DNA from: a virus
Lineage: Duplodnaviria; Caudoviricetes
Reading direction: 5' to 3' (one strand)
Virus record (IMG/VR): IMGVR_UViG_3300021960_000068
Coordinates: 1 to 63,990 of that record
DNA length: 63,990 nt
Position numbers and translations under genes: made by a program. This document shows, piece by piece, positions 5,371-47,844 of the stretch (positions are counted from its first letter, which is position 1; each line of letters starts with the position of its first letter). Below the pieces are notes generated by a model. The model was given only the letters and a program-made list of their open reading frames with translations. It was not told the origin of the DNA and did not search any database.

Positions 5371-6129
5371 TTACAGATAGTCAATCACTTGCGAGTGATC
5401 AACGTTGTCAATTAATTTCTGTACGGCTTGCTTTTTTAGCTCACTTACACGCACATAATTGCTTGTACCTTCTATGTTTAGTTTAGCCGCGATATCTTTA
5501 GCTTGATGCTTATCGCAGTCGAGTCCGTAGCTTAATCTTAGCACCTCGTACTCTTTTTCGTTTAGGTGCTTTTGAAGTAAGCCTTTGAGATAAATATTCA
5601 GTAGAGCTATATTGTATGGCTCTGATTTATCCGCGATTTGATGTATCATCATTTCGCCTTCGTCATTAGCCGGTTGCGCATCTATAGATAAAAATATAGA
5701 ATTAAAAAACATTGCAACCATTTTATGATCTTTAGGGTTTTTACGTATTTCGTTCATCTTATGCTCAGGTATACGTATATCGCCCCTGTGCATATCAATA
5801 CGCCTACGTATAGCACCTTTAATACGTTTACTAAAAAACGATTTTAAGGTTTTTTCTAAGTCATCAGAATCATCTAGCTTTTCCCAAAGAAGTTTATCAA
5901 CTGATTTAATTAAAGCTTCATTGCCGATTTGTATAAGATCGTTTATACTAAGTACGCCTGATGCTTGTTGTGTAGTTGAAAACTTACGCGCTAGATTTTC
6001 TACAAGCGGCATAAACTTAACTATAAGCTCATTACGTGTGTAATCTTTAAAATCCCAATTACCTTCAGGCATAGAAGCTTTTAAGTCTTCTTTGTACCTT
6101 ATATAGTTCTGTACGTTATACTTTTTCAT
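5371..6129 (-). CDS. Sigma-70-family RNA polymerase sigma factor
   Basis: Region 2 (PLVENLARKF...DLIQIGNEALIKSVDK, IRIP) and region 4 (LNEKEYEVLRLSYGL...DIAAKL). Confidence 0.9.
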   Translation of the reverse strand: MKKYNVQNYIRYKEDLKASMPEGNWDFKDYTRNELIVKFMPLVENLARKFSTTQQASGVLSINDLIQIGNEALIKSVDKLLWEKLDDSDDLEKTLKSFFSKRIKGAIRRRIDMHRGDIRIPEHKMNEIRKNPKDHKMVAMFFNSIFLSIDAQPANDEGEMMIHQIADKSEPYNIALLNIYLKGLLQKHLNEKEYEVLRLSYGLDCDKHQAKDIAAKLNIEGTSNYVRVSELKKQAVQKLIDNVDHSQVIDYL

Positions 6130-8705: not shown

Positions 8706-9148
8706 ACTAATTCTTCTTTATTGTATTTTTTAAGTACCGCGTCTGGTTTACCTACAAATATAACTTTTTTAGAAAACGTGTGGTATATAGATATATAGGT
8801 TTGTTCACCTTCTTTAGGAAACAAAGTGTACACGTAGTCCGCCCAGCCATAATCATCATCAATAGGTGATAAGTATAAGCCACCAGGTCGATCTTTAAAT
8901 TCTTTTATAAACTGAGCCGCAAAACAACCTGGGCCATTTGCGTATCTATTAAGCTGTGGAGTTCTGCCTAAACCGTTTCCTATGCTAATACCTTCTAGCC
9001 ATTTGGCATATTCTACTGCCATATATTCAGGATAACCATCATATTGCTGATAAATATTCACAAGCGCAAGCTCTGGTTTTTCATGTGCTTTGTCATACGC
9101 CAAGCCTTCTTGACGTGGTATAATTCGTGTTAGTGATCTTGTGCCCAT
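8702..9148 (-). CDS. Conserved phage hypothetical protein (MGTRS...YDGYP type)
   Basis: Likely start MGTRSL at 9148; YQQYDGYPE motif. Confidence 0.65.
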   Translation of the reverse strand: MGTRSLTRIIPRQEGLAYDKAHEKPELALVNIYQQYDGYPEYMAVEYAKWLEGISIGNGLGRTPQLNRYANGPGCFAAQFIKEFKDRPGGLYLSPIDDDYGWADYVYTLFPKEGEQTYISIYHTFSKKVIFVGKPDAVLKKYNKEELV

Positions 9149-9297
9149 ATTATTTAAATTTACTTGCCACGTGGCGTATTTCTTCTTTTTCATACTGTTC
9201 AAGCCCAGGTGTTTGCTGAGCATACATACGAAGTACGTAGTGAACAAACGTGCAGTCGCTTTCTGTTAGTTTAATTGTCTTCATAATCTTGTTCCCA

Positions 9298-9525
9298 TTA
9301 AATTTTAGCTTTATTAATTGTTGTTATTAATGTTTCTACAGATTTTTTATCAGTAAAGCGTATCGTTGAGGTTTCAAAAACTTCAACCACCCATTTATTA
9401 TCTACAACCTCATCGCTTGCTTGAGTAATTAACCCAAAACCTCTTGCCAAATCATACGTGTAATAATAAAAATTATCACCGAATTCTTTTGTAAATCCTA
9501 AATCTACTAAGTCTTGTTCTTTCAT
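9298..9525 (-). CDS. Hypothetical protein
   Basis: ORF coupled to neighbours. Confidence 0.6.
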   Translation of the reverse strand: MKEQDLVDLGFTKEFGDNFYYYTYDLARGFGLITQASDEVVDNKWVVEVFETSTIRFTDKKSVETLITTINKAKI

Positions 9526-9731
9526 AGTCCTGATTTTTTAAGGAAGTAGTTGTATACTTCTGGTATATGTTTCTTGTAGTAAGGCTGGCTATCTTTAACC
9601 CACTGTTTAAGCTCTGCTTTATTAGTAAAAGGTAGCCTGTTTATGTGATTAGCCATATTAAACATAGGTTCTATATCATCAATAAAATCACCGACTGTCC
9701 AGCCTTCCCATATATGTTTGTCTCTATTCAT
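9522..9731 (-). CDS. Hypothetical protein
   Basis: HIWEGWTV...QPYYKK; coupled ORF. Confidence 0.65.
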   Translation of the reverse strand: MNRDKHIWEGWTVGDFIDDIEPMFNMANHINRLPFTNKAELKQWVKDSQPYYKKHIPEVYNYFLKKSGL

Positions 9732-9877
9732 TATTCCCAGTATTTGTTTACTAGATCTTCAGACCAAAGCGCTTTACTTAAATCTTTTATTGTTTCCATA
9801 AACTCATCAAATACAACTTCGTCTGTACCTAAATCTATACTGTACGTTTTCTCGTAATGTTTAATTATTATTTTCAT
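9731..9877 (-). CDS. Hypothetical 48-aa protein
   Basis: MKIIIKHYEKTYSIDLG...KYWE fills the gap; TAATG overlap. Confidence 0.5.
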   Translation of the reverse strand: MKIIIKHYEKTYSIDLGTDEVVFDEFMETIKDLSKALWSEDLVNKYWE

Positions 9878-9878
9878 A

Positions 9879-10484
9879 TTAGTGAAATATTAGTCCTATT
9901 TTTTTGTTTTTGCTAAACCACTTTGTTGCCATCAAATCAATACTAGAAGCATCCACATAACCGTTAGATAGCAGATCGCTATTAGTAGAAAAGATTTTTG
10001 TGTGTCTATGTTTTCTTTCATTTATCATATGTTTTTGTTTGCCAGAATCACTGAATATAATATCGTAATTACTTGGTAATGAGGTTTTTAAAATTAAATC
10101 TACCATATTGGTATAACTGTAAAACCTTACGTTTGGGTTTTGCTTTGCAATGGTAATCCACTTTTTTAGATACGCGCCGGAATAATAATCACCGCTATCA
10201 TGGACACGTACGTAATCAGGTTTTTTACGTTTTATTTCAGCGTTCATTGCATCTACAAATCTGTCTGTTTTAGTTAGCTCGTAGCGCTTTTCGAAAGCAG
10301 GTTTTACATTGCTCCAGATATATGCGCCTTTCTTAGCGTAACAAAACTTTATACAGTCTTTAGCCATTGGGCATGTTAGTTTACCACTGGCTGATTTGTA
10401 TGCAGGTATACCGAAGTTAAACACCTTAAGCCCTAATTCTTTACTGGTCTTTTTTAATTTACTATTTTGAGTCAGAAGATTCAT
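9879..10484 (-). CDS. Gene product 88 (GP88) family, radical-SAM-like
   Basis: NSKLKK, CPMAKDCIKFCYA, RVHDSGD, FYSYT. Confidence 0.8.
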   Translation of the reverse strand: MNLLTQNSKLKKTSKELGLKVFNFGIPAYKSASGKLTCPMAKDCIKFCYAKKGAYIWSNVKPAFEKRYELTKTDRFVDAMNAEIKRKKPDYVRVHDSGDYYSGAYLKKWITIAKQNPNVRFYSYTNMVDLILKTSLPSNYDIIFSDSGKQKHMINERKHRHTKIFSTNSDLLSNGYVDASSIDLMATKWFSKNKKIGLIFH

Positions 10485-10490
10485 AGTACT

Positions 10491-10703
10491 CTATCTATTG
10501 TTTCTAAAGTGCTCATTTGATAGTATATTTTCAATTTTATCTTCCATACTTACTATATCTTTTGCAAGCTCAAGTATAGTATCTAGACCTCTTTGCTCTG
10601 AATAGCTAAGGTTCACGTCTATATCGCAGTCAAATAGTGTATCTACTACGTCCTGCATATCGTTTGAGGTATTTTCATACCTGCAATAACTCATGTTTGG
10701 CAT
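10491..10703 (-). CDS. Hypothetical protein (MSYCRYENT type)
   Basis: ORF directly downstream of a repeat copy. Confidence 0.7.
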   Translation of the reverse strand: MPNMSYCRYENTSNDMQDVVDTLFDCDIDVNLSYSEQRGLDTILELAKDIVSMEDKIENILSNEHFRNNR

Positions 10704-10716
10704 ATTTATTTTTATT

Positions 10717-10749
10717 TATTATCCGTTAGTGTTCGTGTTTTGTTTTTAA
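10717..10749 (-). promoter_or_regulatory. Early promoter-like repeat, copy 7 (degenerate)
   Basis: TTAAAAACAAAACACGA-N8-GGATAATA. Confidence 0.6.
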
Positions 10750-10752
10750 TAG

Positions 10753-10825
10753 TTGTCTCACTAGGAATCGAACCTAGACTCTTCTGAACCAAAATCAGAC
10801 GTGTTACCAATTACACCATGAGACA
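10753..10825 (-). tRNA. tRNA-Gln(UUG)
   Basis: Acceptor TGTCTCA/TGAGACA, D arm GGTGTAATTGGTAACAC, anticodon arm TCTGA-TTTTGGT-TCAGA, T arm CTAGG-TTCGATT-CCTAG; CCA not encoded. Confidence 0.95.
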
Positions 10826-10832
10826 GGTGGTT

Positions 10833-11099
10833 TTAATCTAATAAAGTCATGTATGCTGAAGGATTAGCTGATCTAAACCAGTCAATACCTTTACGCATTT
10901 CATTTATTAGTTTTTGAGATGCAAAATTAGTACGCTCAAGTATCATATTGCAACCCATAATAAAGTCATACATACTAAGCTCATTAGCATTTAACTCTGC
11001 TGGTTCGCCTGTAAATATGTTTTCTACTGTACCACCTTTTGGGTACACATCGCCATTAAACCATTTCGGTAGCGGCTTCATCTGTGTTTTCGTACTCAT
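10833..11099 (-). CDS. Hypothetical protein
   Basis: ORF ending AYMTLLD. Confidence 0.7.
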   Translation of the reverse strand: MSTKTQMKPLPKWFNGDVYPKGGTVENIFTGEPAELNANELSMYDFIMGCNMILERTNFASQKLINEMRKGIDWFRSANPSAYMTLLD

Positions 11100-11520
11100 A
11101 TCCTTGTTCTATTAGTTTGTTTTCTATTTCTTCTTTTATATCGTTTACCATACTACCGTAAGACTCTTCAACGGCTTCCATAAATGGGTGCCAATCTAAG
11201 TCATCAACATACATACTTTGACCCTCCTGTATTGCTTCAGCGATTTCATCCGCTAAATCATTTTCATAATAGTGTATGTCTTCACTTACGCACACGCTAT
11301 CAGGGTTATGAGTGGCAATATAAACTGTATATCCATCTGCAGTTGTTTCTTCGTAGCAATAAAAATCAAAGTGTTTATTACTCCATTGATCTGAAACTTC
11401 GCAGTCGTAATGCTTTTCTAGTAAATTCCAAGCTTTAGTTTCGTCCATATCGTGGTACTCTAAGTACCCTTTAGCTTCTAACTTATCAGTTATTAGCTTG
11501 TCTGTTAGTATTTTTTCCAT
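11056..11520 (-). CDS. Acidic hypothetical protein
   Basis: 154-aa D/E-rich ORF. Confidence 0.7.
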   Translation of the reverse strand: MEKILTDKLITDKLEAKGYLEYHDMDETKAWNLLEKHYDCEVSDQWSNKHFDFYCYEETTADGYTVYIATHNPDSVCVSEDIHYYENDLADEIAEAIQEGQSMYVDDLDWHPFMEAVEESYGSMVNDIKEEIENKLIEQGYEYENTDEAATEMV

Positions 11521-11858
11521 TTGTTTTTGCTATAATAGTTTTTAAGAATATAATTAAATATAAAGTTTATGCGATTATTTTCGCCGTATATCATGATACG
11601 CTTTTTACTTGTCCAAGCCCTAAGCTCACCATCTTTACTAATCACCTTGTAAGGCACTTCGTAAGTTGGGTTTATTTGATATCTTGTGTAACAGTTTCTA
11701 TCAATTCTTACATAACCCGTTTGATAAGAGGCTATTGTCACACGTTTACCTCTTACATAAAAAGGTATAGCAAACTCTCTAGTTCCATTAACCTGCTGTC
11801 GCGGCGTTGTAATCTCTTCGACTTCCAAGTATTTCATCAACGTAGTCGTGTTTTCCAT
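11505..11858 (-). CDS. Hypothetical protein
   Basis: 117-aa ORF in the early arm. Confidence 0.7.
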   Translation of the reverse strand: MENTTTLMKYLEVEEITTPRQQVNGTREFAIPFYVRGKRVTIASYQTGYVRIDRNCYTRYQINPTYEVPYKVISKDGELRAWTSKKRIMIYGENNRINFIFNYILKNYYSKNKWKKY

Positions 11859-12084
11859 AATCTAATTCTATTAGTTTTAATATATAATTCCAAGTTTCAA
11901 GCTCGCGCTTTGCAGCGTCAAGACATATTTCTAACTCGCGCATAGTTACTACACCAGTATTCTTACGCTCAATGTCATACTCTAGTCTTCTAACTTCGAG
12001 TTGCATTGCGTGTATTTTAGCAAACGCTTTGTCGTGTGCTTTTAGTTTAATCGTTTCCTTCATAGTCATCAAAAATTTCATCAC
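11788..12084 (-). CDS. Hypothetical coiled-coil protein
   Basis: ORF; start uncertain. Confidence 0.6.
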   Translation of the reverse strand: MMKFLMTMKETIKLKAHDKAFAKIHAMQLEVRRLEYDIERKNTGVVTMRELEICLDAAKRELETWNYILKLIELDYGKHDYVDEILGSRRDYNAATAG

Positions 12085-12301
12085 CCCAAATAATAGATAA
12101 AGCTGTTTGATTTACATAATCTGTATCAGAAAACAAATGAACTCGTCTTAGCTCGCCAACGGTTAAGTCTTGTACGAAGTAAGTATTTTCAAGTCTAGCA
12201 ATAACTTGCCTGACACTTGAGCTGTATTTACCTTCGTTTTCTTTAAGCTTAGCTCGCACGCGAGGCTTTAGCTTATCGTAAAGTGTCGGTATTTTAGTCA
12301 T
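12047..12301 (-). CDS. Hypothetical protein
   Basis: ORF directly after tRNA-like element A. Confidence 0.65.
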   Translation of the reverse strand: MTKIPTLYDKLKPRVRAKLKENEGKYSSSVRQVIARLENTYFVQDLTVGELRRVHLFSDTDYVNQTALSIIWGDEIFDDYEGND

Positions 12302-12316
12302 AATTTATAATTTTAG

Positions 12317-12384
12317 TGGACGTGGCAGGAATCGAACCTGCGTTTAGGTAATGCACAAAGCAGAACCCCTAACCCTTCACGCCC
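12317..12384 (-). ncRNA. D-armless tRNA-like RNA A, resembling a tmRNA tRNA-like domain, with G3:U70
   Basis: GGGCGTG/CACGTCC acceptor, T arm GCAGG-TTCGATT-CCTGC, helix TTAGG/CCTAA, no D stem. Confidence 0.75.
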
Positions 12385-12387
12385 ATT

Positions 12388-12463
12388 TGTGCAGTCATTT
12401 CCTAAGCGCGGTGCACCACTGTCGTTAAACCGGTGCGCGTCTTTGTTATTTATTCGCTGCACA
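12388..12463 (-). ncRNA. Structured element upstream of tRNA-like RNA A
   Basis: TGTGCAG/CTGCACA outer stem with inner GCACC/GGTGC stem; GC-rich in an AT-rich region. Confidence 0.5.
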
Positions 12464-12465
12464 TT

Positions 12466-12660
12466 CTACTTACGCCGCCAAGACCTGTGCACTGCTGCAC
12501 TGGTTTCTTGACTGACGATTTGTATTGTATTACCGGTTTTATGCTCAATAATTGGTACATAACTGTACGTTTGGGTTGTTGAGCACGACACACAAGTTTT
12601 GTAGCCCATATCTAATCGCAACTGTGGTATTTTTACACCGGGTTTACATCTACAATACAT
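12466..12660 (-). CDS. Small zinc-finger-like protein
   Basis: CRC...RL...TCVSC (DksA/TraR-like C4 pattern). Confidence 0.65.
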   Translation of the reverse strand: MYCRCKPGVKIPQLRLDMGYKTCVSCSTTQTYSYVPIIEHKTGNTIQIVSQETSAAVHRSWRRK

Positions 12661-12676
12661 ATTTATTATTTTATAT

Positions 12677-12709
12677 TATTATCCAACAGGTGTCGTATTT
12701 TGTTTGTAA
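12677..12709 (-). promoter_or_regulatory. Early promoter-like repeat, copy 6
   Basis: TTACAAACAAAATACGA-N8-GGATAATA. Confidence 0.75.
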
Positions 12710-12903
12710 TCAGGTAATAATTCTACAGCTAGTTTTTCAACAGCTTTTTCAATAATGTGATTACAAGCGTTGTAATATTCATCACCTGATAGTTTATCTA
12801 CGATAGTTCCATCAACTGACCAGCTAATAGAATCCATCATAACTTCTTTTAAGTTATCCGCTACAGCTTCTGCAATCGAATCTAGTTCTTTCGTTTTACT
12901 CAT
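12679..12903 (-). CDS. Hypothetical protein
   Basis: ORF whose 3' end runs through the repeat. Confidence 0.6.
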   Translation of the reverse strand: MSKTKELDSIAEAVADNLKEVMMDSISWSVDGTIVDKLSGDEYYNACNHIIEKAVEKLAVELLPDYKQNTTPVG

Positions 12904-13053
12904 TTTCTATTATTTAGTTGGTTTATTTGCTCCATTTTGTAAGCTTCATATTCTTCTCTAGGTATCCATTTATCTATTTCAGAAAAATATACCATTCCGT
13001 CTTCATATCTAAATATAATTCCGTTAAAGTTTCCTGGTTCTAAAAATTCCATA

Positions 13054-13245
13054 TTAAAAGTAGTTTATTGTGTTATCAGAGTGGGACATCCACTCAATAT
13101 TGTTTAATTTATAGCCTTCGCTTGTTATAAACTCTTCAAAATCTTCAGTTTGCCAATGCGCAAGCGTAGTTTTATCAAAGTGGTCAGCGAGGTTGTATTG
13201 GTCTACTGAGCCATTTGCGAAGTCAAGTATAGTTATATAGTACAT
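13054..13245 (-). CDS. Hypothetical protein
   Basis: 63-aa ORF. Confidence 0.65.
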   Translation of the reverse strand: MYYITILDFANGSVDQYNLADHFDKTTLAHWQTEDFEEFITSEGYKLNNIEWMSHSDNTINYF

Positions 13246-13490
13246 TTCTTGATTTGTTTTAGTTGTTCGACTGAGTATTGTTTGCTAGTTTCACGCCACA
13301 TAGCATGGTGAGTGAACTTTCTAACTTTTGGGAAGCTAGATTTCTGACTGTGTACAATACGAGTGTATTCGTTGTCAGTTAGTCCACTGCACCTGCCTTC
13401 GTGGGCGAACTTGCGTCTATGCTCCGCAGCTCGCTGTTTTCTCATACGCGTAGAGTATTCGCATAGCTCTTTCATAGTTGTTACGCCCAT
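13233..13490 (-). CDS. Hypothetical basic protein
   Basis: ORF; start uncertain. Confidence 0.6.
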   Translation of the reverse strand: MGVTTMKELCEYSTRMRKQRAAEHRRKFAHEGRCSGLTDNEYTRIVHSQKSSFPKVRKFTHHAMWRETSKQYSVEQLKQIKKCTI

Positions 13491-13684
13491 GGGTTATCTG
13501 ATTTAGGTACATAGGTTAGACCTTTGTAGTTGAACCATTCAGAGATACCTTCTTGGATATTACCGTCGCCTGTTAGCCTTTGTTTGAAGCCAAATGATGG
13601 AGGTAGATTACCTACGTTGTAAGGTTTGTAAATTTCGCCGTTAAGCTTGATTGTCTTGTTTGACAAGAATTTGATTGATTGCAT
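13481..13684 (-). CDS. Hypothetical protein
   Basis: ORF directly downstream of a repeat copy. Confidence 0.65.
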   Translation of the reverse strand: MQSIKFLSNKTIKLNGEIYKPYNVGNLPPSFGFKQRLTGDGNIQEGISEWFNYKGLTYVPKSDNPWA

Positions 13685-13703
13685 AGTTTGTATTTGTTTA
13701 TTA

Positions 13704-13736
13704 TATTATCCAGTAAGCGTCGTATTTTATTTGTAA
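13704..13736 (-). promoter_or_regulatory. Early promoter-like repeat, copy 5
   Basis: TTACAAATAAAATACGA-N8-GGATAATA. Confidence 0.75.
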
Positions 13737-13870
13737 TACTCTGCTTGCCATTGTGGAATACCTGAGTTATAACGCTCATACCATTCGCGCTCAACTGTTT
13801 CGATTTGCGCTCGGGTTAGTTTTGCAACGGTTAGTCGAGTTCTTTTTCGTGTAGTTTTGCTTCTAGCCAT
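13727..13870 (-). CDS. Hypothetical 47-aa protein
   Basis: MARSKTTRKRTRLTVAKLTRAQIETVEREWYERYNSGIPQWQAEYYK; below the ORF-track cutoff. Confidence 0.55.
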   Translation of the reverse strand: MARSKTTRKRTRLTVAKLTRAQIETVEREWYERYNSGIPQWQAEYYK

Positions 13871-14070
13871 TCGTATTCTTCTTTGTTAATTTTATCTTCT
13901 ATTTTTACAATTAAGTCGTTAAATAAGTCTTGAGTAGTTTCACCGTCTTCTAAGTCACATTCGTGAGTTACAAAGCTTAGTACTCTTTGAGCTACGTGAG
14001 CCCAACCATTTAAGTCGTATAGGTCAGCGAAGTAGTCTATTGTTTCTTCGTTCCAAGTAAATTCTTTCAT
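13831..14070 (-). CDS. Acidic hypothetical protein
   Basis: 79-aa ORF. Confidence 0.65.
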   Translation of the reverse strand: MKEFTWNEETIDYFADLYDLNGWAHVAQRVLSFVTHECDLEDGETTQDLFNDLIVKIEDKINKEEYEWLEAKLHEKELD

Positions 14071-14249
14071 TTATTTTTATTTAAGTTAATTAACAACTGT
14101 CTTTCTCGCATAGCTTTAAAAGTATCACTTATCAGTTCACTTCTCTGTTCGCTTGTAAGACCAGCGATGTAGTTAGTATTGTAGCGTTCGTTTGCTAGTT
14201 TGTGTAAGTGGTCGTAGTAGTTTATACGTTTCATATTAGTTGTTTATTA

Positions 14250-14282
14250 TATTATCCAAAGAGTGTTGTATTTTATCTGTAG
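14250..14282 (-). promoter_or_regulatory. Early promoter-like repeat, copy 4
   Basis: CTACAGATAAAATACAA-N8-GGATAATA. Confidence 0.7.
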
Positions 14283-14419
14283 ATACCAAAATCTGCATCG
14301 AGCTGACCGGTGATTAAACCAAATATAAGGAAACCAATTCCAGATATTGCCATTGTAGTTAAACCAATTACGGTTGCATAAGTTATAGCTATGATAGCTT
14401 TGTGTGTAAACTTTCTCAT
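14273..14419 (-). CDS. 48-aa single-pass membrane peptide
   Basis: MRKFTHKAIIAITYATVIGLTTMAISGIGFLIFGLITGQLDADFGIYR. Confidence 0.6.
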   Translation of the reverse strand: MRKFTHKAIIAITYATVIGLTTMAISGIGFLIFGLITGQLDADFGIYR

Positions 14420-14564
14420 TTGTTAGTTGATTTATAGTAGTTAATTCTTTCTTGTACTTGCTCGCGAGTAATCTCACCGTCAAGTTGCATGAGTATATAT
14501 CCACTCATATCGATTTGTTTGCCGTTTTGGCAAGTTAGTATAAATTGCATAGTTAATTATTTAG

Positions 14565-14643
14565 AAGTCGCTGTGAGAATCGAACTCACACAAGTGATAG
14601 AGTTGGTATTCGTCCATCGTTGTCACTTGTAACCGTTGCGACT
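14565..14643 (-). ncRNA. D-armless tRNA-like RNA B
   Basis: AGTCGC/GCGACT acceptor, AACGGTT linker, ACAAGTGA/TCACTTGT helix, T arm GTGAG-TTCGATT-CTCAC. Confidence 0.7.
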
Positions 14644-14736
14644 AGTTTTTACCGCTTGCTCGTTTTATTTTATGTCGCTAAGGCGATAGCTCAACTACGA
14701 CATTAGTTATACTGAATTTAAGCAGTTTGTTTCAAG

Positions 14737-14967
14737 TTATAGTACTTCAGTATTTTGAAGTGCTTTTGGAACAGAAGTTGATGAAGTATACGAGTTGTAC
14801 TTTAACCAACATGACAAGTGGTCAAGATTTTCAGACATTAGCTCATAAGCTTTATCGTGATTGTATTTGAATGTTTTACCATTTTTGAATGTAACTTCAA
14901 TGATAGTATTTTGACCGATTAAAGATTTACGAATGACGAATCTTTTAGAAGTAATTGAATTTTGCAT
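14737..14967 (-). CDS. Hypothetical early protein
   Basis: KRFVIRKSLIG...YNHD...YTS; downstream of a repeat copy. Confidence 0.7.
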   Translation of the reverse strand: MQNSITSKRFVIRKSLIGQNTIIEVTFKNGKTFKYNHDKAYELMSENLDHLSCWLKYNSYTSSTSVPKALQNTEVL

Positions 14968-15011
14968 AGTTATGAATTTAAGTATTTATATTTGTTATTT
15001 AGTATTTATAT

Positions 15012-15044
15012 TATTATCCAGTTGCTGTCGTATTTTGTTTGTAA
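15012..15044 (-). promoter_or_regulatory. Early promoter-like repeat, copy 3
   Basis: TTACAAACAAAATACGA-N8-GGATAATA. Confidence 0.75.
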
Positions 15045-15140
15045 AGAGTGTAGTTTTATTTAGTACTAGTTTTTGTTTAGTGGTTATTACACTACGCTTC
15101 TTTGTGTATAACTAATTAGTTTGTTAGTTAGTTACATTTA

Positions 15141-15173
15141 TATTATCCAAAATAGTTCGTATTTTGTCTGTAA
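15141..15173 (-). promoter_or_regulatory. Early promoter-like repeat, copy 2
   Basis: TTACAGACAAAATACGA-N8-GGATAATA. Confidence 0.75.
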
Positions 15174-15346
15174 TTATAGTTTGCTTATTAATTCGTCGAG
15201 CGTAATTTGCAAGCTAGTTTTAGTAACGTTGCCGTTTATATATTGGTTTAGTTCGTCGATTGCAGTTAGTATTTCGATTTTAGTATTAGAATTAATTTGC
15301 ATAGTAATTATTTTTAGTTATTTAGTAGCTTAATTGCTTACGTATA

Positions 15347-15379
15347 TATTATCCAAACGTACTCGTATTTTGTCTGTAA
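15347..15379 (-). promoter_or_regulatory. Early promoter-like repeat, copy 1
   Basis: TTACAGACAAAATACGA-N8-GGATAATA. Confidence 0.75.
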
Positions 15380-15582
15380 AAATAAAATTAGTTAGTTAGC
15401 TTCCGTCGGAAAAAGTCAAAACATTCTACGTAACTGGCTGATTTTCTGGTATATATATGTTAAAAAAGTCAAAAAGTTGGGGGGCCCGGTGAATTTAAAA
15501 CCGTTTTTGTAAATCGTTGATAATCAATAACATAGGGGGTAGCACTATACCCCAATATTTGTAACGTGATTTTTTCAATAGG

Positions 15583-15627
15583 GTGACATTAGGGTTATAA
15601 GTATATATAGTAAGGGGCTATTGTCAC
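15583..15627. promoter_or_regulatory. Inverted-repeat operator-like site, copy 2
   Basis: GTGACATTAG-(AT-rich)-AGGGGCTATTGTCAC. Confidence 0.65.
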
Positions 15628-15641
15628 TATATAACTAGTTT

Positions 15642-15671
15642 GTAAACTATCACTTTTATCTGTGAGTATAT
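15642..15671 (+). promoter_or_regulatory. Putative class II promoter GTAAA-N15-GTGAGTATAT
   Basis: Upstream of the first tail fibre gene; boxes identical to 23784-23813. Confidence 0.65.
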
Positions 15672-15695
15672 AACCTATAAAAGAATTTAAGAAAT

Positions 15696-18600
15696 ATGGC
15701 TATAATATATTCATACCCAGATATTGGCGACGTACAAGGCAATGACATCATAGTTATTACTGATGCTGATACAGGTAATGCAACCAAATCAGCGACAATA
15801 GACACATTGTCAGCCTATATTGCAGCTCAAGCTGGTGCAGGTACTGTGCAAAGCTTCAGTGTGGACTCTTCGTCTATACCAGGTATTACAACTGTAGTCA
15901 CAAACGCTACAACTGACCCATTGCTGACGGTGAGTATAACAGGAACACCTGGTCCTAACAAGTATTTAGACGGTACTGGCAACTGGACAACCCCTGCTGG
16001 TAGCGGAGGAGGTGCTTTAACGCTCACCACTGATGGAACTTCAGGAGCAGCCACGCTAGTTGGTACTGCACTTAACATACCTATCTACTCTACTAGTGGC
16101 GGTTCTGGAACTGTTGAAAGTATTACAGCGGTAGCTCCACTTACTGGAGGTACTATAACCACAACAGGTAGCATCGGAATAAATCAAGCTTCAGTATCTG
16201 CAAATGGTTACTTATCTTCTACAGACTGGAACACGTTTAACACAAAACAAAGTACTTCTGAAAAAGGGCAAGCTGATGGTTATGCTCCATTAGATAGTAA
16301 CAACAAGGTTCCAGCTGTTCACCTGCCAGATAGTTTGGTTGGAGCTGTGGTATATCAAGGCACGTGGAACGCTTCGAATAATATACCTGCGCTTCCAACA
16401 CCCGCTTTATCAAACAAAGGTCATTATTATATAGTAAGCGCTTCGGGTGTTTACTTAGGTATAACATACGCTATAGGTGATTGGGCTATATCAAACGGAA
16501 CTGATTGGCAAAAAGTAGATAACACGCAAGATGTTAACTCTGTATTCGGGCGTCAAGGTAATGTTGTGGCAAATCAAAGTGATTACGCTACGTTTTACGC
16601 AGATATAAATGACGCATATTCAGACGCAAAAGTAGATCTTAACTTAAATGTTGCTAGCGCGAACGCAACACAAGTACTTTCTTGGAGTGGAACTGATTAC
16701 GTTTGGGTAAACCAACAATCAGGTGGTGGCGGTGGTGATGTTATTTCTGTTAATGGACAACAAGGTGTTGTAAGTCTTGATACAGATGACATACCAGAAG
16801 GCGCTACTAATTTGTACAATGTACAATCTGATTGGACAGCTACTACAGGAGCAGCGGTTATACTTAATAAACCAACGCTTTCAACAGTAGCTACAACAGG
16901 TGAGTATAGTGATTTATTAAATACCCCTAATTTAGCTGCGGTAGCTACATCAGGTAGTTATAATGATCTCACAGATAAACCTACAATACCAGGTGGAACC
17001 AATATAGGTTCTACACCTTCAGCTTCAAATGTAGTCATAACATCGTCAACAGGCAGCGATGGTACTGTCGCAGCAGCCACTCAATCACTAGCAGGTGTAA
17101 TGACCGCAGCTGATAAGCTTAAGCTAGATGGCATAGCTAATAACGCTACAAACTACGGTGATTCAAATGTAAATCTTCTTTTAGATCAAGCTAATGCTCC
17201 TAATAATTATGTATTATCTTGGAATGGGCAAGCTTACACTTGGATAAATCAATCAGGCGGGTTAAACTCGTTTAACGTTCAGTCTGACACAGGCGGCGAT
17301 ATAACTGTTAATCAAGCTAACACATCGTTTAAAATTTCTGGCGGAACTGAGCTGCTCACGACTAGAACTAATAGCAGCATAGATATTTCTTTGCAAACAA
17401 CTGGTGTTGCTGCTGGTAGTTACACAAATACAAACATAACTGTAGATTCTAAAGGTAGAATAACCTCTGCTAGTAATGGATCTGGTAGTAGTGGTATAGA
17501 TGGTTCTGGAACAGCAACACAAATGGCTATATTTGATTCTACATCAACAATAACCTCTACACAAGCTGTAGCTGTAAATAATTCTAGCCAAGTAATAATG
17601 GATGTGTTGCGCAGTAGCAATTCCTATGCAGATGACACAGCTGCTTTAGCTGGTGGCGTTCCATACGGTGGACTATATAGAACTGACAGCACCGTTAAAA
17701 TAAACCTACTTGGAAGTAGCCCTAGTGATGATCCATACACACCTGTTAGTGGGTCAAGTTGGCTTACTTTAAATTATGAATATATAAGTGGTTCTAACCA
17801 AGTTATAAATTTATATGATTTTAATTGGAATACGGTTCAACCAGTAGATGGTAATAGTAATCCTATATCATTTGCACCAGTACCACTCGCTGATCCAGGT
17901 CGTAGTGTTTCTTACGGATCTTGGAAAGTAAGTGATAACTATGAAAAAATATGGTTTGCCGATAGTTTTCAAGGATCTATTATTAGCAATGATTATGGTC
18001 AAACATGGAGTAATTTTACAGGGCCAACAGTTGGTGATGGCGCTGGCCAAATTTATAGTTACAATTCTTCAATGTCTAAAGATGGAAAAGTTTTTTGTTA
18101 TCCCTCTACACCTCAAGGCCAAACAACGCCATTAACAATTGTTAAAAGTGATGATTTTGGACAAACATTTTCCAATATTAATCTAGGTGGAAATACTACT
18201 TTTGATCGGATCTCGTCATCATCCGTTTCTTCAGGAGGTAAGTATATAGCAATTATAGTTAGAATAACTTCTAGCTCTGCACTAACACTATGGATTAGTA
18301 ATGACTATGGTGCTAATTTTACACAATCAACAGGATCATTGCCACTTGGAACCTTCTCAGGCGATCGAGTAGTTGTTTCAGGTACAGGTAAATATATTTA
18401 CGTTATTATTAATTCTTCATCAGATGTTTATAGATCTATTGACTATGGGGTTTCTTTTAGTCTTTCTTCAACGAATTCAAACGGATCAGGATTGGCTTCT
18501 AATATAACTGATATAGACATTAGTGCCGATGGTCAGTCTTTAATATACGTAGATAATACCCAAGCGCGATATTTTTATAATGAATCTTTTGGAGTTGGCG

Positions 18601-24192: not shown

Positions 24193-25749
24193 ATGACTGA
24201 CAAAATTGTCAAAAATCTTAACTTTGGCCAAGAGGCTAAAGATAAGGTGTTTAAAGGTATAGATAAATTAACAAAGGCTGTTAGCTCCACACTTGGGGCT
24301 AGCGGCCAATGTGTAATACTAGAAGATGATCAGGGCAAACCTGTCATTACAAAAGATGGTGTAACCGTAGCAAACGCTATTACACTATTAGACCCAGTAG
24401 AAAATATGGGTGCTACGCTTCTAAAGGAAGCTGCTAGAAAAACTGTTCAAGAAGCTGGCGATGGAACAACAACGGCTACAGTACTAGCGCACTCAATTTT
24501 AACTGAAGCGTATAAAAATATCGATAAAGATAATATACGTAATATTAAAAACGGTATAACAAGTGCTGTTGATAAAGTAATTAATTACTTAGAAAAAAAG
24601 GTTATTGCAGTAGAAGGTAGTATGCTAGATGATGTAGCTACTATTAGTTGTAACAACGATGCTGAGCTTGGCAAAATAATCGGTGATGCTTTTAAAGCTG
24701 CTGGTGAAAACGGTGTTGTTATAATGGAACCTACAACAGAAGACAAAACAGAGTTTGAACTTGTCGATGGTGTGCAATACGAAAAAGGTTTAACAAACTC
24801 TCACTTTATAACAAGCAAAGAAAAACGTATAGCAGAGCTTGATAACCCACTTGTGTTACTAATTGAGTCACCTATAGAATCTGTACGCAAGATTCAATCG
24901 GTACTTGAATACGTAATTAAAAACAAAAAGCCTTTACTTATTATTGGTGATTTAGAAACCGAGGTGTTAGCTACGCTAGCAATGAATAAGGTTAAAGGTA
25001 ATATAAAAGTAAATGTAGTAAACGCACCTACATACGGTATAAATAAAAAAGACACAATGTCTGATTTAGCTATGCTAACCGGTGCTACTGTTATCAATGA
25101 AGATCTTGGTGATGACTTAGACGTTATAAACCCAGACTTCCTAGGATCATGTTTTAAGAGCACAACTAGTGATACAGATACAATACTTCAAGTAGATACT
25201 TCTACTGACGAGATAAAGCGTTTAATTGATTCAGTTAAAAAACTAATATCTAAAGCTAAAGCTCCCGGTGAAATTATAAGACTTGAAAAAAGATTAGCTA
25301 GACTATCAGCGAAAGTTGCAGTTGTAAAAATAGGGGCTAACTCAGAGATAGAGTTAAAAGAAAAATCAGATAGAGTCGAAGATGCTATCTGTGCTACTAA
25401 AGCCGCGGTAAAAGAAGGTATAGTATCTGGAGGTGGTATAGCTCTTCGCGATGCATCTAATAAAACCAAAGGTAAAACCGTTGGTGAAAAGATATTGCTA
25501 GAAGCTATTAAAGCTCCATTTAAAACTATACTAAATAACGCTGGACTAGAAGAGGTTGGTACGCCCGAAGAAGGTATGGGTGTTAATGTAGTTACAGGTG
25601 AAACTGTTCACATGGTTGATACGGGGATTATAGATCCTTTACTTGTAACTAAAAGTGCACTCAAACACGCGGCTTCAGTGGCTACCACTATATTATCTAC
25701 AGATTGTGTAATCAATAATTTAAGAGTTGGAGATGAAAGCAGTAGGTAG
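24193..25749 (+). CDS. groEL: Chaperonin GroEL (phage type)
   Basis: ITKDGVTVA, AGDGTTTATVLA, DRVEDA, GIIDP; no GGM tail. Confidence 0.97.
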   Translation: MTDKIVKNLNFGQEAKDKVFKGIDKLTKAVSSTLGASGQCVILEDDQGKPVITKDGVTVANAITLLDPVENMGATLLKEAARKTVQEAGDGTTTATVLAHSILTEAYKNIDKDNIRNIKNGITSAVDKVINYLEKKVIAVEGSMLDDVATISCNNDAELGKIIGDAFKAAGENGVVIMEPTTEDKTEFELVDGVQYEKGLTNSHFITSKEKRIAELDNPLVLLIESPIESVRKIQSVLEYVIKNKKPLLIIGDLETEVLATLAMNKVKGNIKVNVVNAPTYGINKKDTMSDLAMLTGATVINEDLGDDLDVINPDFLGSCFKSTTSDTDTILQVDTSTDEIKRLIDSVKKLISKAKAPGEIIRLEKRLARLSAKVAVVKIGANSEIELKEKSDRVEDAICATKAAVKEGIVSGGGIALRDASNKTKGKTVGEKILLEAIKAPFKTILNNAGLEEVGTPEEGMGVNVVTGETVHMVDTGIIDPLLVTKSALKHAASVATTILSTDCVINNLRVGDESSR

Positions 25750-25996
25750 AAATATAGTAATAAAAAAGAAAAAAGAAGACACCGTCAAAAAAACTGACGG
25801 TGGTCTTATGTTAACTGGTAAACAAAGAGTTGATATTCGTTATAAAGAAGCGACTATACTTCATTGTGGTGACGACGTTAAAGGTGTAGAAGAAGGTCAA
25901 ACAATATTCTACGATAAAAACGCTGGCCACAGACTTGAAGTAGACAAAGAGGTTTTTTATGTTATACGAGATGTAGACGTTGTAGTTGTGCTATGA
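25733..25996 (+). CDS. groES: Co-chaperonin GroES-like
   Basis: KTDGGLML mobile loop, GDDVKGVEEG; follows groEL. Confidence 0.85.
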   Translation: MKAVGRNIVIKKKKEDTVKKTDGGLMLTGKQRVDIRYKEATILHCGDDVKGVEEGQTIFYDKNAGHRLEVDKEVFYVIRDVDVVVVL

Positions 25997-28405: not shown

Positions 28406-29017
28406 ATGTCAGATTTAAAAAAAGCGCAAGAGCTTAGGGCTAGAAGAGAAATGGTTCGGCAAAAACAACAAGATTCTATAGAAAAAAGAGATATGAAAGC
28501 AAACGCTACTCGTGCTGAAAATATAGCACGGAGAAAAAGAGCGGCGGAAAAAGTAGGTAAAACATTTTCTTACAAAGATACAGTAACACCAAATGTTGTG
28601 GGCGGTCCGTTAAACTATGGATCACCAATGAAAAAATCATCGTGTATTAAAATGTACGATAGCAAAGGAAAACCTGCTGGTCTTATGGCTGAAGGATCTA
28701 TGGCTTATATGGAATCTATAGGTCAAGAAAAAAGTAACTTAATGCAAGATATGCCTGTTGATGACAAAGCATCAGCTATGGAAATGTCTCCATATAAAAT
28801 GGATCACGGTTCTCCTGCTAAAGAAACTGATACAAATAAAAAACCAACTACTATGGATTTTAATATTGGATCTGGACTTGTAGATAAAAAAGGTAGCCGC
28901 AGAAAAGAGTTTGAAAAAGCTTTTGCAACTGCAAGAAAAGCTGGTGTAAAAGAATTTACTTATAATGTTGGAGAAGAGCCTAAAAAGAAATACACTACAA
29001 AGCTTAAAGGCGAATAA
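28406..29017 (+). CDS. Basic/Met-rich hypothetical protein
   Basis: SPxK repeats; FEKAFATARKAGVKEF..KYTT motif. Confidence 0.65.
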   Translation: MSDLKKAQELRARREMVRQKQQDSIEKRDMKANATRAENIARRKRAAEKVGKTFSYKDTVTPNVVGGPLNYGSPMKKSSCIKMYDSKGKPAGLMAEGSMAYMESIGQEKSNLMQDMPVDDKASAMEMSPYKMDHGSPAKETDTNKKPTTMDFNIGSGLVDKKGSRRKEFEKAFATARKAGVKEFTYNVGEEPKKKYTTKLKGE

Positions 29018-45300: not shown

Positions 45301-46408
45301 GCTTACCGATAGTCGAGGAGCTGCTATATACTTTACAGCTAATTTTGATAATCTAACAGACAATATACCAAACAATTTTGGAAATATAAATTATAATTCT
45401 AATGGTTACAATACTAGTTTTTATTTAAAAGGATTAGTACAAAATTTATCTACACCAATAAACAACAGATCTGTTTGTGATCCTAACCAAGTAGGCTTTA
45501 TGGGTGCACCTGGTAGTCAAAATTCTGGTTTTGCAAATGAAAGACAAACAACAGGTGGTCTTACAACTGGCGCTTTTTACGTATATTTTAATCCTATGAT
45601 TTCTAAATCTATGAGCGGTATGTTTAACCCTGAAGAGATTAATTTTAGATACCAAATAGCTTATAGAGTAGATTCTAACGATACTTGGTCTACAGCTGTT
45701 GATATAAATGGTAACGCTGCAGACTATTCAGGAACATGGAAATATGATGGTCAGGGCACAGAAGGTTTAGATAATCAATACTATGTTGGTTCTAACTGGC
45801 TTTCTAGCGGTAGTCCTCAGGTAGTAGTTGCTAAAATTGAAAATAACTCTGCACCAAGGTATGCTGGTTTAGTTTATGCGTTTGATACTCCGGGCGAATA
45901 TAGAATTTTGCACTCAAATATGGCTTCTACTTTTGGAAAGCTAACACCTCAAGGAGATAATCAAAACGGCTTCAGTTGTACCGCATTTCCTTATTACAGT
46001 ACTGAAATGGAGCATGTATTTGAAACAGGTGATTTTTATTATCCAGGTAGTTCTGCTGGTGGCATTGATGATGCTATAGCTGCAGGTAGCGGAGATTCTA
46101 ACAATGTGTTTAGATATAGAATAAGCCAGGGAAGTTGTTCATCATTGCCAAGCTTAAATATTTATGCTAGAGAACCTGTAGCGAAATATGTAACACAATT
46201 GTACACGGATCAAGCTTTAAGCACTAAACTTCAATCTATATCGGGAGGAACTTCTTATGTAATTAGAAGAATGGAAAACTTAAGCTCAACTGCTAGCGCT
46301 TATTTAAATCCTGAATATACTAAAAATGGTACGTACCAAATATCTTTTCAAAACACTACAGGGCTCGTGAGCACAGGGCTAGACAGCCCAAAACCTTGTT
46401 ATTATTAA
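42314..46408 (+). CDS. Tail stabilisation/nozzle protein (N-terminal part) with Ig-like extensions
   Basis: MNKDLDARL..GEYRDAVNI, FTDNRNQPRKIN, FSYRFK, SLKQNRNYQVG. Confidence 0.75.
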   Translation: MAEVKNAFIKSKMNKDLDARLIPQGEYRDAVNIQVSKSEGDDVGALENVLGNVSRADFEADSGVSNLTCIGYFVNEFDSNVYLFFTDYTDAYSTPIPTYDPNANNFIYQCSLASNPNPTTPATIKKLVEGSFLNFSTNRPIIGVNVLENFLFFTDNRNQPRKINISLANPNNVSNPTYYNIEENISVAKYYPYKPIDVIKETSTLGEYETTMYDAFSEFIPLNEGTPGGAPTPPNVNNPYYESNFPGDPQFLEDKFVRFSYRFKFSDGEYSLISPFTQICFIPKQDGYFLQGDEKQTFGSTIVKFMENKVNKIDLQIPLPSAGDQLLNNFHISEIDIIYKESDGLALQVVETIPIDASFANSVGSNTVFEYSYLSQKPYKTLPSSEITRVYDKVPVRALGQEIISNRVVYSNFQDKHTPPSFIKYQVGANEKYIPTNANSSKTSIEYPNHSLKQNRNYQVGFVLADRYGRQSTVILSNDQDPTSAGGFGADTVYLPYRPVNDSIDFLGDSLKISVNAVIQSNKNDINTPNQPGLYNGDSTSTDYNPLGWETYKIVVKQLEQEYYNVYTAGAMKGLPEDNTSDLNTSFITLVNDNINKVPRDLTEVGPQDKTFRSSVRLFGRVENNTANFSNIGNEQYLPNNTKLSFTTNAIEDLFDLFTIDTSTHAITSDQNPYHAFYKAESNPFVAEFITTQTTADQFGVIAESNQPYLIIENLAILETAPTISRLDLFYETSTVGDIDTLNQNAGPTSGGGVRNVNTAFQYTHFEDYATGTDVTNTFWFIDFGDNKIDPASAVLTSVTDNSGSGTNRYLEWTLVSLPDSEYKLQTNAYFYYSASPDNAGLQESYNFTFEVTTNQGISTVTGVSGLLQNSDPSIDNSNATTIQALVGQQSVLPNLTGKNGSNDQNSNTTTYTQNLTFSIVSSTGNGVYSVVNNNEVQNSNTQAAGTGSFTVRVTDNGNPTAKTVDKTFDIVFDKPNTNLLSYKAFPTLSGAINGTLTDSRGAAIYFTANFDNLTDNIPNNFGNINYNSNGYNTSFYLKGLVQNLSTPINNRSVCDPNQVGFMGAPGSQNSGFANERQTTGGLTTGAFYVYFNPMISKSMSGMFNPEEINFRYQIAYRVDSNDTWSTAVDINGNAADYSGTWKYDGQGTEGLDNQYYVGSNWLSSGSPQVVVAKIENNSAPRYAGLVYAFDTPGEYRILHSNMASTFGKLTPQGDNQNGFSCTAFPYYSTEMEHVFETGDFYYPGSSAGGIDDAIAAGSGDSNNVFRYRISQGSCSSLPSLNIYAREPVAKYVTQLYTDQALSTKLQSISGGTSYVIRRMENLSSTASAYLNPEYTKNGTYQISFQNTTGLVSTGLDSPKPCYY

Positions 46409-46410
46409 TT

Positions 46411-47844
46411 ATGGGAGCGGTAATAGAAGTAAAATATTTTAACTCTTTTTTACTAAGGAAGACAGTTGAAGCTGGAGCAACGGGTACAACACCTCCTATT
46501 TGGATGGGTAGCACAGGTATCCCGTCTGGTGATGGATCTTTTCCTGAAACCCCAATAGTTAATACAGATCAATCTAAAAGCTGGGTTGTAGAAGAAGCTC
46601 GTATACGTGGTGGTTATAACAATACAAATGTTGATTATGGCGTAAGAGCATATTTAGTAGATGAAGAACCAAATGGAAGTGTAAGAAGTAATGCGCTTAT
46701 ATATTCAGGTATATTTAATTCTAGAACTGGTATTAATGATACAAACGTTTTCAATGTTGCTGAGGATATAACTAAAGCCGCGGATCCAGCAAACGGTAGT
46801 ATACAAAAATTATATGCTGAAGATACAAACCTTATTATATTTCAAGAAAATAAAGTTAGTAGAGCGCTTATAGATAAAGATGCTATATATTCTGCTGAAG
46901 GCGGTGGAACTGTTACGTCTGCTAATTTAGTTATAGGTCAAATTGTTCCTTACGCTGGTAATTTTGGTATTAGTAGAAACCCAGAAAGCTTTGCTGTATA
47001 TGGCTATAGAAAATATTTTGTAGATAAAAACAGAAATGCTATACTACGCTTATCACAAGATGGTATTACTGAAATATCTAATTATGGTGTATATGATTAT
47101 TTTAGAGACGAACTTTCTAATTTAAACGTTGGTGATAAAGCTATAGGTGCTTGGGATGTATACACAAAACAATATGTAGTTAGTTTACAAGGTTCTAACA
47201 TAACACCGACAATATCAGGAGCGCAAGGTCAGTTTTCAGACACATATCAAACTTTAGCGTTTGATGAATCTGTACTTGGTTGGACTAGTAGATTTACTTA
47301 TAAACCAGAGCAAGTATTTAGTCTTAAGGCTAAGTTTTATAGTATAAATGATGGCGCTTTGTATGAACACAACTATCAAGAGTTTGGTAGCGATGATAAT
47401 AGGTCTAAGTTTTATGGCATATACTCTGATTCTAGGATTACATTTATATTTAACCCAAAAGTTAGCGCGTCTAAGGTATTTAAAACAGTAAACTACGAAG
47501 GCTCATCAGGTTGGGAAGTTTTTGAATTTAATGCAGCTAGAAGTTTTGATCAAAATGATACAGCTAATTTGGTTTATAGTTACGATGAAGGAAGTTATAT
47601 GCAAAACGGTATACAATATTACGCTGGGTTTTATAAAAAAGAAGGTAAGTATTTAGCTAACCTTATAAATAACAGTCCAGCTACATCTCAAGAAGTTGTA
47701 TACGGTGCAAGTGTTTCAGGTGTAAAAGGCTACTATGCAACTGTGACTATAAGAACAGATGATAGTACACAGGTGGCAGGAGCAGGTGGTAAGACTCGTG
47801 AGTTGTTTGCGGTATCTTCTGAATATGTAGAATCAAGTTATTAA
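46411..47844 (+). CDS. Tail stabilisation/nozzle protein (C-terminal part)
   Basis: GSIQKL, FGISRNPESF, RLSQDGITEIS, KKEGKY. Confidence 0.75.
   Translation: MGAVIEVKYFNSFLLRKTVEAGATGTTPPIWMGSTGIPSGDGSFPETPIVNTDQSKSWVVEEARIRGGYNNTNVDYGVRAYLVDEEPNGSVRSNALIYSGIFNSRTGINDTNVFNVAEDITKAADPANGSIQKLYAEDTNLIIFQENKVSRALIDKDAIYSAEGGGTVTSANLVIGQIVPYAGNFGISRNPESFAVYGYRKYFVDKNRNAILRLSQDGITEISNYGVYDYFRDELSNLNVGDKAIGAWDVYTKQYVVSLQGSNITPTISGAQGQFSDTYQTLAFDESVLGWTSRFTYKPEQVFSLKAKFYSINDGALYEHNYQEFGSDDNRSKFYGIYSDSRITFIFNPKVSASKVFKTVNYEGSSGWEVFEFNAARSFDQNDTANLVYSYDEGSYMQNGIQYYAGFYKKEGKYLANLINNSPATSQEVVYGASVSGVKGYYATVTIRTDDSTQVAGAGGKTRELFAVSSEYVESSY

Follow-up and report, generated by a model that had tools for sequence, protein, structure and literature searches.

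The genome analysed here, referred to as the window, is an entire IMG/VR virus record of 63,990 bp. It raises the question of what kind of RNA is encoded by a 68-nt sequence that has the acceptor stem and T arm of a tRNA without its D stem and anticodon arm, and what such an RNA would do for a phage. CheckV rates the record as 100% complete, and its G+C content is about 35%. The record represents the full 64-kb genome of a lytic phage that is kin of the Flavobacteriia podophages. Its terminase is closest to that of an uncultured podovirus (63%), followed by those of Flavobacterium (Elemovirus, 46%), Cellulophaga (37-38%) and Tenacibaculum (31%) phages, and because of these relatives we infer a Flavobacteriia host. 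Scans of 73 of the 78 listed ORFs against Pfam and of 14 ORFs against PHROGs gave matches that include a primase-helicase, an ERF recombinase, a ligase, a ribonucleotide reductase, GroEL/GroES, the terminase and the portal, and no match to an SmpB or integrase family. The window also encodes GroEL/GroES homologues together with a protein carrying a crAss-type muzzle C-terminal domain (24193-25993 and 46396-47841, both plus strand). DNA similarity searches returned no isolated phage, and at a loose E-value only T-arm matches to ordinary tRNAs.

The element is located within a minus-strand block of small early-type genes, is intergenic, and is followed 16 nt downstream by the next ATG (12301). 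It reads from 12384 to 12317, and the letters quoted in the preliminary description are the reverse complement of window positions 12314-12384. Its parts are as follows.

12317-12384, minus strand: TLD-only (tag-less) tmRNA-like RNA, where TLD is the tRNA-like domain; G1 is 12384 and the discriminator A73 is 12317; assigned from sequence, fold, RF00023, the family model R1, the family and covariation.
12378-12384, minus strand: acceptor 5' strand GGGCGUG, with G3 at 12382.
12369-12377, minus strand: D-loop-like single strand AAGGGUUAG with GG and no D stem, placed by alignment A1.
12347-12368, minus strand: central hairpin of 22 nt at the place of tmRNA helix 2, from constrained folds of 53 distinct family members; its closing pairs covary.
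12342-12346, minus strand: linker UAAAC, 5' of the T arm.
12325-12341, minus strand: T arm GCAGG-UUCGAUU-CCUGC.
12317-12324, minus strand: acceptor 3' strand CACGUCC (12324-12318) and discriminator A (12317), with U70 at 12320.
12314-12316, minus strand: 3' trailer CUA; CCA is not encoded.

The acceptor GGGCGTG/CACGTCC thus forms seven base pairs in which G3 is opposite U70, and neither the sequence nor the folds of the 68 nt contain a D stem or a 7-nt anticodon loop. The anatomy given in the preliminary description (7-bp acceptor, G3:U70, discriminator A, canonical T arm, no D stem and no anticodon loop) is confirmed on the minus strand. ARAGORN calls nothing at the element, its sole call in the window being a tRNA-Gln at 10752-10825 (minus strand), and Rfam at gathering thresholds likewise reports this tRNA-Gln and no family at the element. 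Under permissive filters, with 801 nt searched, the tmRNA model RF00023 scores 33.5 bits (E 1.2e-11), which is below its gathering score of 47 and is the best score at the element among the tRNA-clan families of Rfam; the comparison with ARAGORN and Rfam that had been suggested earlier therefore yields no tRNA and a tmRNA below the cut-off. RF00023 aligns only the two ends of the element (model positions 1-18 and 345-374), and 31 nt replace 326 model positions, which in bacterial tmRNA account for the pseudoknots, the resume codon and the tag. The insert consists of 22 nt plus the linker and contains no resume codon or pseudoknot. In the window and in 59 related loci ARAGORN finds no tag frame, a result that very short tags of 2 aa could escape; tags of this length are known among tmRNAs according to PMC11915505. 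The 71-nt stretch 12317-12387, comprising the element and three upstream bases, has a minimum free energy of -28.3 kcal/mol (z = -3.0), and 2 of 200 shuffles are as stable. Both the fold of the element and its likeness to tmRNA exceed chance.

The element had first been regarded as a singular oddity, a view that does not hold, as it belongs to a large family and to a described kind. The exact 25-mer made up of the T arm and the acceptor 3' strand is found in 59 other viral contigs, and every one of these has, 43-124 nt upstream of the 25-mer, a matching 5' strand, which is GGGCGTG in 58 and GGACGTG in one (L054). Together with the window this gives 60 members with 53 distinct sequences of 68-149 nt. 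They have in common the D-loop-like consensus AAAUGGUUAG (with variants), one long helix, a linker (U)AAC and the T arm, and the constrained folds of the 53 distinct members show the central helix to be hypervariable in sequence and length. At the 59 related loci ARAGORN reports neither tRNA nor tmRNA nor tag at the element. A CTA follows the discriminator in 55 of the 60 members, at a position that lies outside the search pattern. The family model R1, run on the whole window, recovers the element at 65.1 bits (E 3.6e-12), the element itself being among the training sequences of R1. A 49-aa ORF at 12313-12462 overlaps the element; a hidden coding frame or tag was considered and rejected, because the lengths of family members differ by non-multiples of three and no reading frame is kept.

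More divergent members were obtained by relaxing the search. A pattern limited to the D-loop and T-loop recovered 14 known loci and a new one (L061), 15 in all; in L061 the acceptor GGGTGCG/CGCATCC and the T stem GCTGG/CCAGC represent compensatory changes that leave G3:U70 and A73 intact. With acceptor positions 66-70 left free at least 118 matches were found, and those listed comprise 30 ARAGORN tRNAs, 21 tmRNAs, 27 matches lacking a 7-bp acceptor within 200 nt and 40 untyped elements (27 distinct). Among the 27 distinct untyped elements in the matches listed, pair 3:70 is G:U in 18, A:U in seven, U:A in one and G:C in one; on inspection by eye, several of the A:U and G:C cases have a D arm and resemble interrupted tRNAs. 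Also in this sample are additional TLD-only forms whose acceptor stems differ (L088, L124, L133, L140 and L106), of which L088 is 63 nt long and has a GGUUUCGAC motif and a GCAA-capped helix. Two kinds of untyped element recur, one of 118 nt (L075, L089, L100, L121 and others) that ends in a T arm and acceptor with G3:U70, and one of 150 nt (L064, L076, L137) that ends likewise with G3:C70 and a poor T stem.

The gene directly upstream of the element lends itself to an independent view of the family. The features on this side are listed below.

12385-12465, minus strand: leader separating orf64 from the RNA; it folds into a hairpin at about 12388-12463 (z only -0.85), and a homologous leader is present in L059 and L127.
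12466-12660, minus strand: orf64, a 64-aa Cys-rich protein directly upstream of the RNA, characterised by tblastn and alignment A2.
12665-12709, minus strand: promoter-like repeated motif TTACAAACAAAATACGA ... TTGGATAATA upstream of orf64, with further minus-strand copies.

In alignment A2 the cysteines C3, C5 and C23 of orf64 are invariant and C26 is nearly so, and the C-terminal half is near-invariant (YSYVPII.HKTGNTIQIVSQ...WRRK). By tblastn, relatives are found in the 59 RNA-family loci at 40-95% identity and in 439 viral contigs overall. No match to orf64 was found in PHROG or Pfam, nor in a Foldseek search of the PDB at E <= 0.001 with an AF2 model of mediocre quality (pLDDT 71). A TraR/DksA finger, to which an atlas lead pointed (zf-dskA_traR, 0.89), is not supported, the lead coming without a Pfam or fold match.

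The best further copy of the promoter-like motif is at 15005-15044 (minus strand; 40 nt, 90% identity), and partial copies of 17-19 nt occur near 15174, 15379, 13737 and 8488, besides a weak copy at 10750; every copy is on the minus strand. The motif is repeated before early genes and is probably the early promoter of the phage. On this arrangement promoter, orf64 and RNA would form one transcription unit, from which the RNA would be released in the manner of a tRNA and receive its CCA afterwards. Of 17 ARAGORN tRNAs at these loci, 15 have ends that match the trailer of the RNA, the register having been checked by pairing in L105 only, and in three loci (L005, L032, L105) a tRNA lies 5-12 nt downstream of the element. 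Contigs of four RNA libraries were compared with positions 9000-16000 and cover parts of this region, including orf64, the leader at 12392-12459 and family variants of the element. In two RNA-library runs the contig depth across the region peaks at the leader, in contigs whose flanks are unlike the window. As these data are contigs only, lacking ends, strand or level, with DNA carry-over possible and uncovered parts uninformative, they are a weak hint of expression.

Conservation of the structure was assessed in alignment A1, which holds 39 members collected with RNA patterns, part of which fixed U70, and in which pairing was scored for a specified structure. Within it 90.1% of cells pair, compared with 33-51% when the partners are slid, and the covariation score is reached by 0 of 500 shuffles. 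The acceptor stem is 100% paired with four of seven pairs changed on both sides, and the T stem is 100% paired with three of five pairs so changed. In the closing helix of the central hairpin all five pairs are changed on both sides, and 71-74% of cells are paired in A1 and in the orf64-anchored sample described below. Of the two Gs of the D-loop, the first (G11 in the window sequence) never varies, and the second (G12) is conserved in at least 90%. Pair 3:70 is G:U in 37 of 39 members, A:U in two and G:C in none; A3:U70 occurs in L054 and L126.

Because part of the RNA patterns fixed U70, the test was repeated from the side of orf64, using the best 80 loci of the relatives in 439 viral contigs. 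R1 matches 56 of these 80, always downstream of orf64 and on the same strand. Among the 46 distinct matches, pair 3:70 is G:U in 45, a count that is not fully unbiased since R1 favours G:U by a few bits, and the adjacent pair 4:69 is CG in 33, GC in 10 and AU in three; three T-stem pairs covary in this sample also. The stems thus covary among homologues as the preliminary description had proposed to examine, and its counter-scenario of a decaying tRNA, with no covariation and G3:U70 lost, is contradicted. Judged from these alignments the G3:U70 alanine mark is under selection, and the RNA is probably charged with alanine.

The closest described counterpart is found in an actinobacteriophage. 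'Mycobacterium phage DS6A (TLD only)' is listed among tmRNAs by Hudson, Lau and Williams (2014, PMC4131195). Like the element, the DS6A RNA is encoded by a phage and consists of one piece, here of about 80 nt. Its acceptor GGGGCCG/CGGCUCC contains G3:U70 and is followed by A73 and a CUA trailer; the GG D-loop lacks a stem, a hairpin takes the position of helix 2, the T arm is canonical and there is no tag frame. The DS6A RNA differs in its actinobacterial host, in a more canonical D-loop and junction (UGGUGGUCGAC), and in being a single sequence, whereas the marine family has well over 50 different sequences whose inserts are hypervariable. RF00023 gives the DS6A gene (28478-28560 of its record) 43.2 bits, which is also below the cut-off of 47, and at this same position R1, although derived from the marine family alone, reaches 46.9 bits (E 3.3e-8). 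Nucleotide similarity of the element to the phage collection, DS6A included, does not extend beyond the T arm.

Bacterial tmRNA as modelled by RF00023 shares with the element G3:U70, A73, the T arm, the stemless D-loop and a helix between D-loop and T arm. Two compact phage tmRNAs of 244 nt, on larger and unrelated viral contigs (L070 8144-8387 and L138 2648-2891, both minus strand), have the identical acceptor GGGCGUG/CACGUCC, A73 and a CTAA trailer, and differ in a canonical D-loop (GGUUUCGAC) and in tag frames (AKQNQFALAA, ANKNQFALAA). No terminase match links either to the window, both records being fragments. Phage tmRNAs, including two-piece forms in marine phages, are known from PMC9004378. 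TLD-only forms are also described from organelles in PMC11915505, namely plastid forms of about 65 bp and tag-less mitochondrial tmRNAs that co-occur with SmpB. Compared by description (PMC11915505, citing Jacob et al. 2004), the jakobid mitochondrial and plastid forms (RF02544) resemble the element in being TLD-only and believed to work together with SmpB although they lack a tag, and differ in being organellar and mostly permuted two-piece genes. Alanine tRNA has G3:U70, A73, the T arm and a tRNA-type 3' trailer in common with the element, which departs from it in having neither D stem nor anticodon arm and in not being called by ARAGORN. Mimicry of the host tmRNA was considered and is not supported. 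The tmRNAs of two MAGs (G001, labelled Bacteroidetes, and G003, whose tmRNA is Bacteroidota-like by eye) have acceptor stems unlike the element and GGUUUUGAC in the D-loop compared with its GGUUAG; a genome scan for the exact 3' half with the T loop of the element gave 96 loci, and among 80 titles none is labelled Flavobacteriia.

The features of a 'standard, no CDS' tmRNA that the element displays are the acceptor with G3:U70 and A73, the T arm, the stemless GG D-loop, a P2-like helix, the lack of a tag and the likeness to DS6A; it falls short of the RF00023 gathering score, as does DS6A, and has no tag-encoding mRNA-like domain and no tRNA cloverleaf. The element is a genuine and conserved gene whose product is a tag-less tmRNA-like RNA of alanine identity. 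The earlier proposal of a tmRNA TLD with alanine identity and no mRNA domain is supported by the covariation and by the DS6A likeness. This kind is already known from phage DS6A and from organelles and is not a new kind of system. The marine set is its first large family, and a search of the open-access literature text found no prior report of it. Nawrocki, Petrov and Williams (2025, PMC11915505) count nine 'Standard, no CDS' entries among 97,179 tmRNA sequences, with 79 phage sequences in all. Tag-less tmRNAs are thus rare in the curated database. The standard finders miss this family, ARAGORN being silent and Rfam below its cut-off, and a single widespread lineage of marine and estuarine phages, whose marker protein orf64 occurs in 439 viral contigs, commonly carries TLD-only forms.

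What the RNA does is less certain than what it is. It is proposed, with slightly better than even confidence, that the phage gene specifies a tag-less TLD-only tmRNA that acts on host trans-translation. The RNA would be transcribed early with orf64 from the shared promoter and excised like a tRNA, with an RNase P cut at 12384, 3' trimming after 12317 and addition of CCA. It would then be charged with alanine by the host AlaRS, be bound by host SmpB and EF-Tu, and compete with the host tmRNA at stalled ribosomes. Competition rather than tagging is envisaged because the RNA has no resume codon or tag frame. The outcome would be either titration of SmpB, which blocks tagging, or the donation of a single alanine, which amounts to rescue without a degradation tag. 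The element may sequester SmpB, for which similar molecules provide a precedent in print: a molecule like the DS6A RNA is described as a strong inhibitor of tmRNA whether or not it can be charged, an effect that may come from titration of SmpB (PMC4131195 and PMC11915505; Mao et al. 2009 as cited there). Binding of SmpB is not assured, because the two MAG tmRNAs have other acceptor stems and the GGUUUUGAC D-loop. Tag-less rescue by the element is possible. A role that needs charging, and with it entry into the ribosome, is favoured over pure SmpB titration because G3:U70 is kept while its neighbours covary and the published inhibition does not need chargeability. The family bears on what a tmRNA does without its message, and it offers natural variation in the acceptor, including the A3:U70 exceptions, in the modular hairpins and in the form of non-alanine siblings. 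Counted against the proposed action on trans-translation are the RF00023 score below gathering, the non-alanine siblings, A3:U70 in L054 and L126, the recurring insert modules, and a search of five related phage records that gave no convincing member. The preliminary description had also suggested a decoy for anticodon nucleases, which is unlikely because the element has no anticodon loop.

The non-alanine siblings begin in the window itself.

14565-14643, minus strand: second D-armless tRNA-like element, in an intergenic gap (R1 18.7 bits, E 0.047; no Rfam family).

It has a 6-bp acceptor AGUCGC/GCGACU with U3:A70, U73, a GG loop, a hairpin, the T arm GUGAG-UUCGAUU-CUCAC and a CUA trailer. 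Its homologues in L042 and L354 (family 2) have almost no insert (about 42 nt), and the one in L042 carries a compensatory change of G:C to A:U. A pattern scan with the T arm of family 2 gave one member among the 117 matches listed, the rest being almost all ordinary tRNAs. Other siblings take the place of the alanine type after orf64. At least seven of the 24 orf64 loci without an R1 match carry another D-armless tRNA-like element downstream, less than 600 nt of downstream sequence being available in nine of the 24. They are of the type UAACUAG/CUAGUUA in L429, L430, L433, L463 and L503, followed by a normal tRNA in L433 and L503, and of the type AGGGUAA/UUACCCU in L472, and that of L466 was read by eye. 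A tRNA top half with a variable hairpin is evidently a broader theme in this phage lineage. The likeness to tmRNA is specific to the alanine type, because Rfam recognises none of the siblings as tmRNA or tRNA.

Since sibling elements have non-alanine acceptors, scaffold and processing roles stay in play. In the first of these, considered rather unlikely, the top half would be a tRNA-like scaffold for a cargo hairpin that acts as a protein sponge, antisense RNA or anti-defence decoy; it would contribute RNase P and 3' processing and stability only, the alanine identity being secondary, for example in 3'-end protection or EF-Tu recruitment. The hypervariable, modular inserts are what would be expected of a cargo. 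The same module occurs in L034/L042 and in L080, where acceptor and T stems differ, and modules are nested inside longer helices (L053 compared with L049, L006 with L028); because they recur across different scaffolds the modules hint at a function in the hairpin. By eye, a 15-nt word of the L034/L042/L080 insert also recurs in the leader hairpin of the window, outside the RNA, and the RNA-library depth over the leader module at 12392-12459 points weakly the same way, as does the shared architecture of the non-alanine siblings. However, the invariant part is the scaffold. GGGCGUG is retained in 58 of 59 loci while flanking proteins drop to 25-50% identity, and 3:70 stays G:U where the Watson-Crick pairs around it covary. 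Moreover the family-2 relatives in L042 and L354 are nearly devoid of an insert, and that of the window measures only 22 nt.

A role in processing is judged improbable. Here the element would be tRNA-like punctuation, an RNase P and 3'-end site that splits the early transcript after orf64 or stabilises the orf64 mRNA, and the released RNA would have no role of its own. The intergenic place shortly before the next ATG is consistent with this, as are the promoter-like motif that directly follows the RNA element in several other loci and the several acceptor types that occupy the place after orf64. Punctuation needs pairing only, however, and leaves unexplained the invariant acceptor, G3:U70, A73, the GG D-loop and the tmRNA-like junction, as well as the likeness to the DS6A RNA.

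A more speculative proposal, held with comparably low confidence, is that orf64 and the alanine-type TLD RNA constitute a phage-specific two-gene module. The RNA would be an interchangeable tRNA top half whose hypervariable hairpin is under diversifying selection, and it would either present a moving target to host defences that read tmRNA-like RNAs or decoy them, and would not be a simple tmRNA competitor. Such defences might include systems with SmpB-like domains, which PMC11090510 proposes for CoCoNuTs. That the element is a pseudogene left by the decay of a tRNA-Ala or tmRNA, or the relic of an attachment site in a host tmRNA gene, is highly improbable: tmRNA genes are common integration sites and leave fragments in prophages according to PMC9004378, but both halves of the element are present and paired, they covary in a large family, the complete record has no integrase among the 73 ORFs scanned against Pfam, and the exact 3' half is in no Flavobacteriia-labelled record among the 80 titles.

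Some members of the family occur in unusual settings. The locus L264 has two TLD-only copies, 5388-5475 and 5545-5647, that are 69 nt apart, the first ending in an encoded CCA, and L473 has two R1 matches, 1554-1647 and 2038-2127, about 390 nt apart. Members are also present on short MAG contigs (L184, L209, L223 and L224, with the labels Bacteroidetes and Aliivibrio) that look like phage contigs binned into MAGs. In five whole related phage records, the uncultured MW202828 and the isolates Elemovirus elemoC, Cellulophaga phi13:2, Cellulophaga phi38:1 and Tenacibaculum Gundel_1, R1 found no convincing member, the weak matches being tRNAs or non-alanine oddities. The Gundel_1 record (NC_062747) contains at 73061-73129, on the plus strand, a 69-nt D-armless tRNA-like element with G3:C70 that is not called by ARAGORN and lies just upstream of a tRNA cluster.
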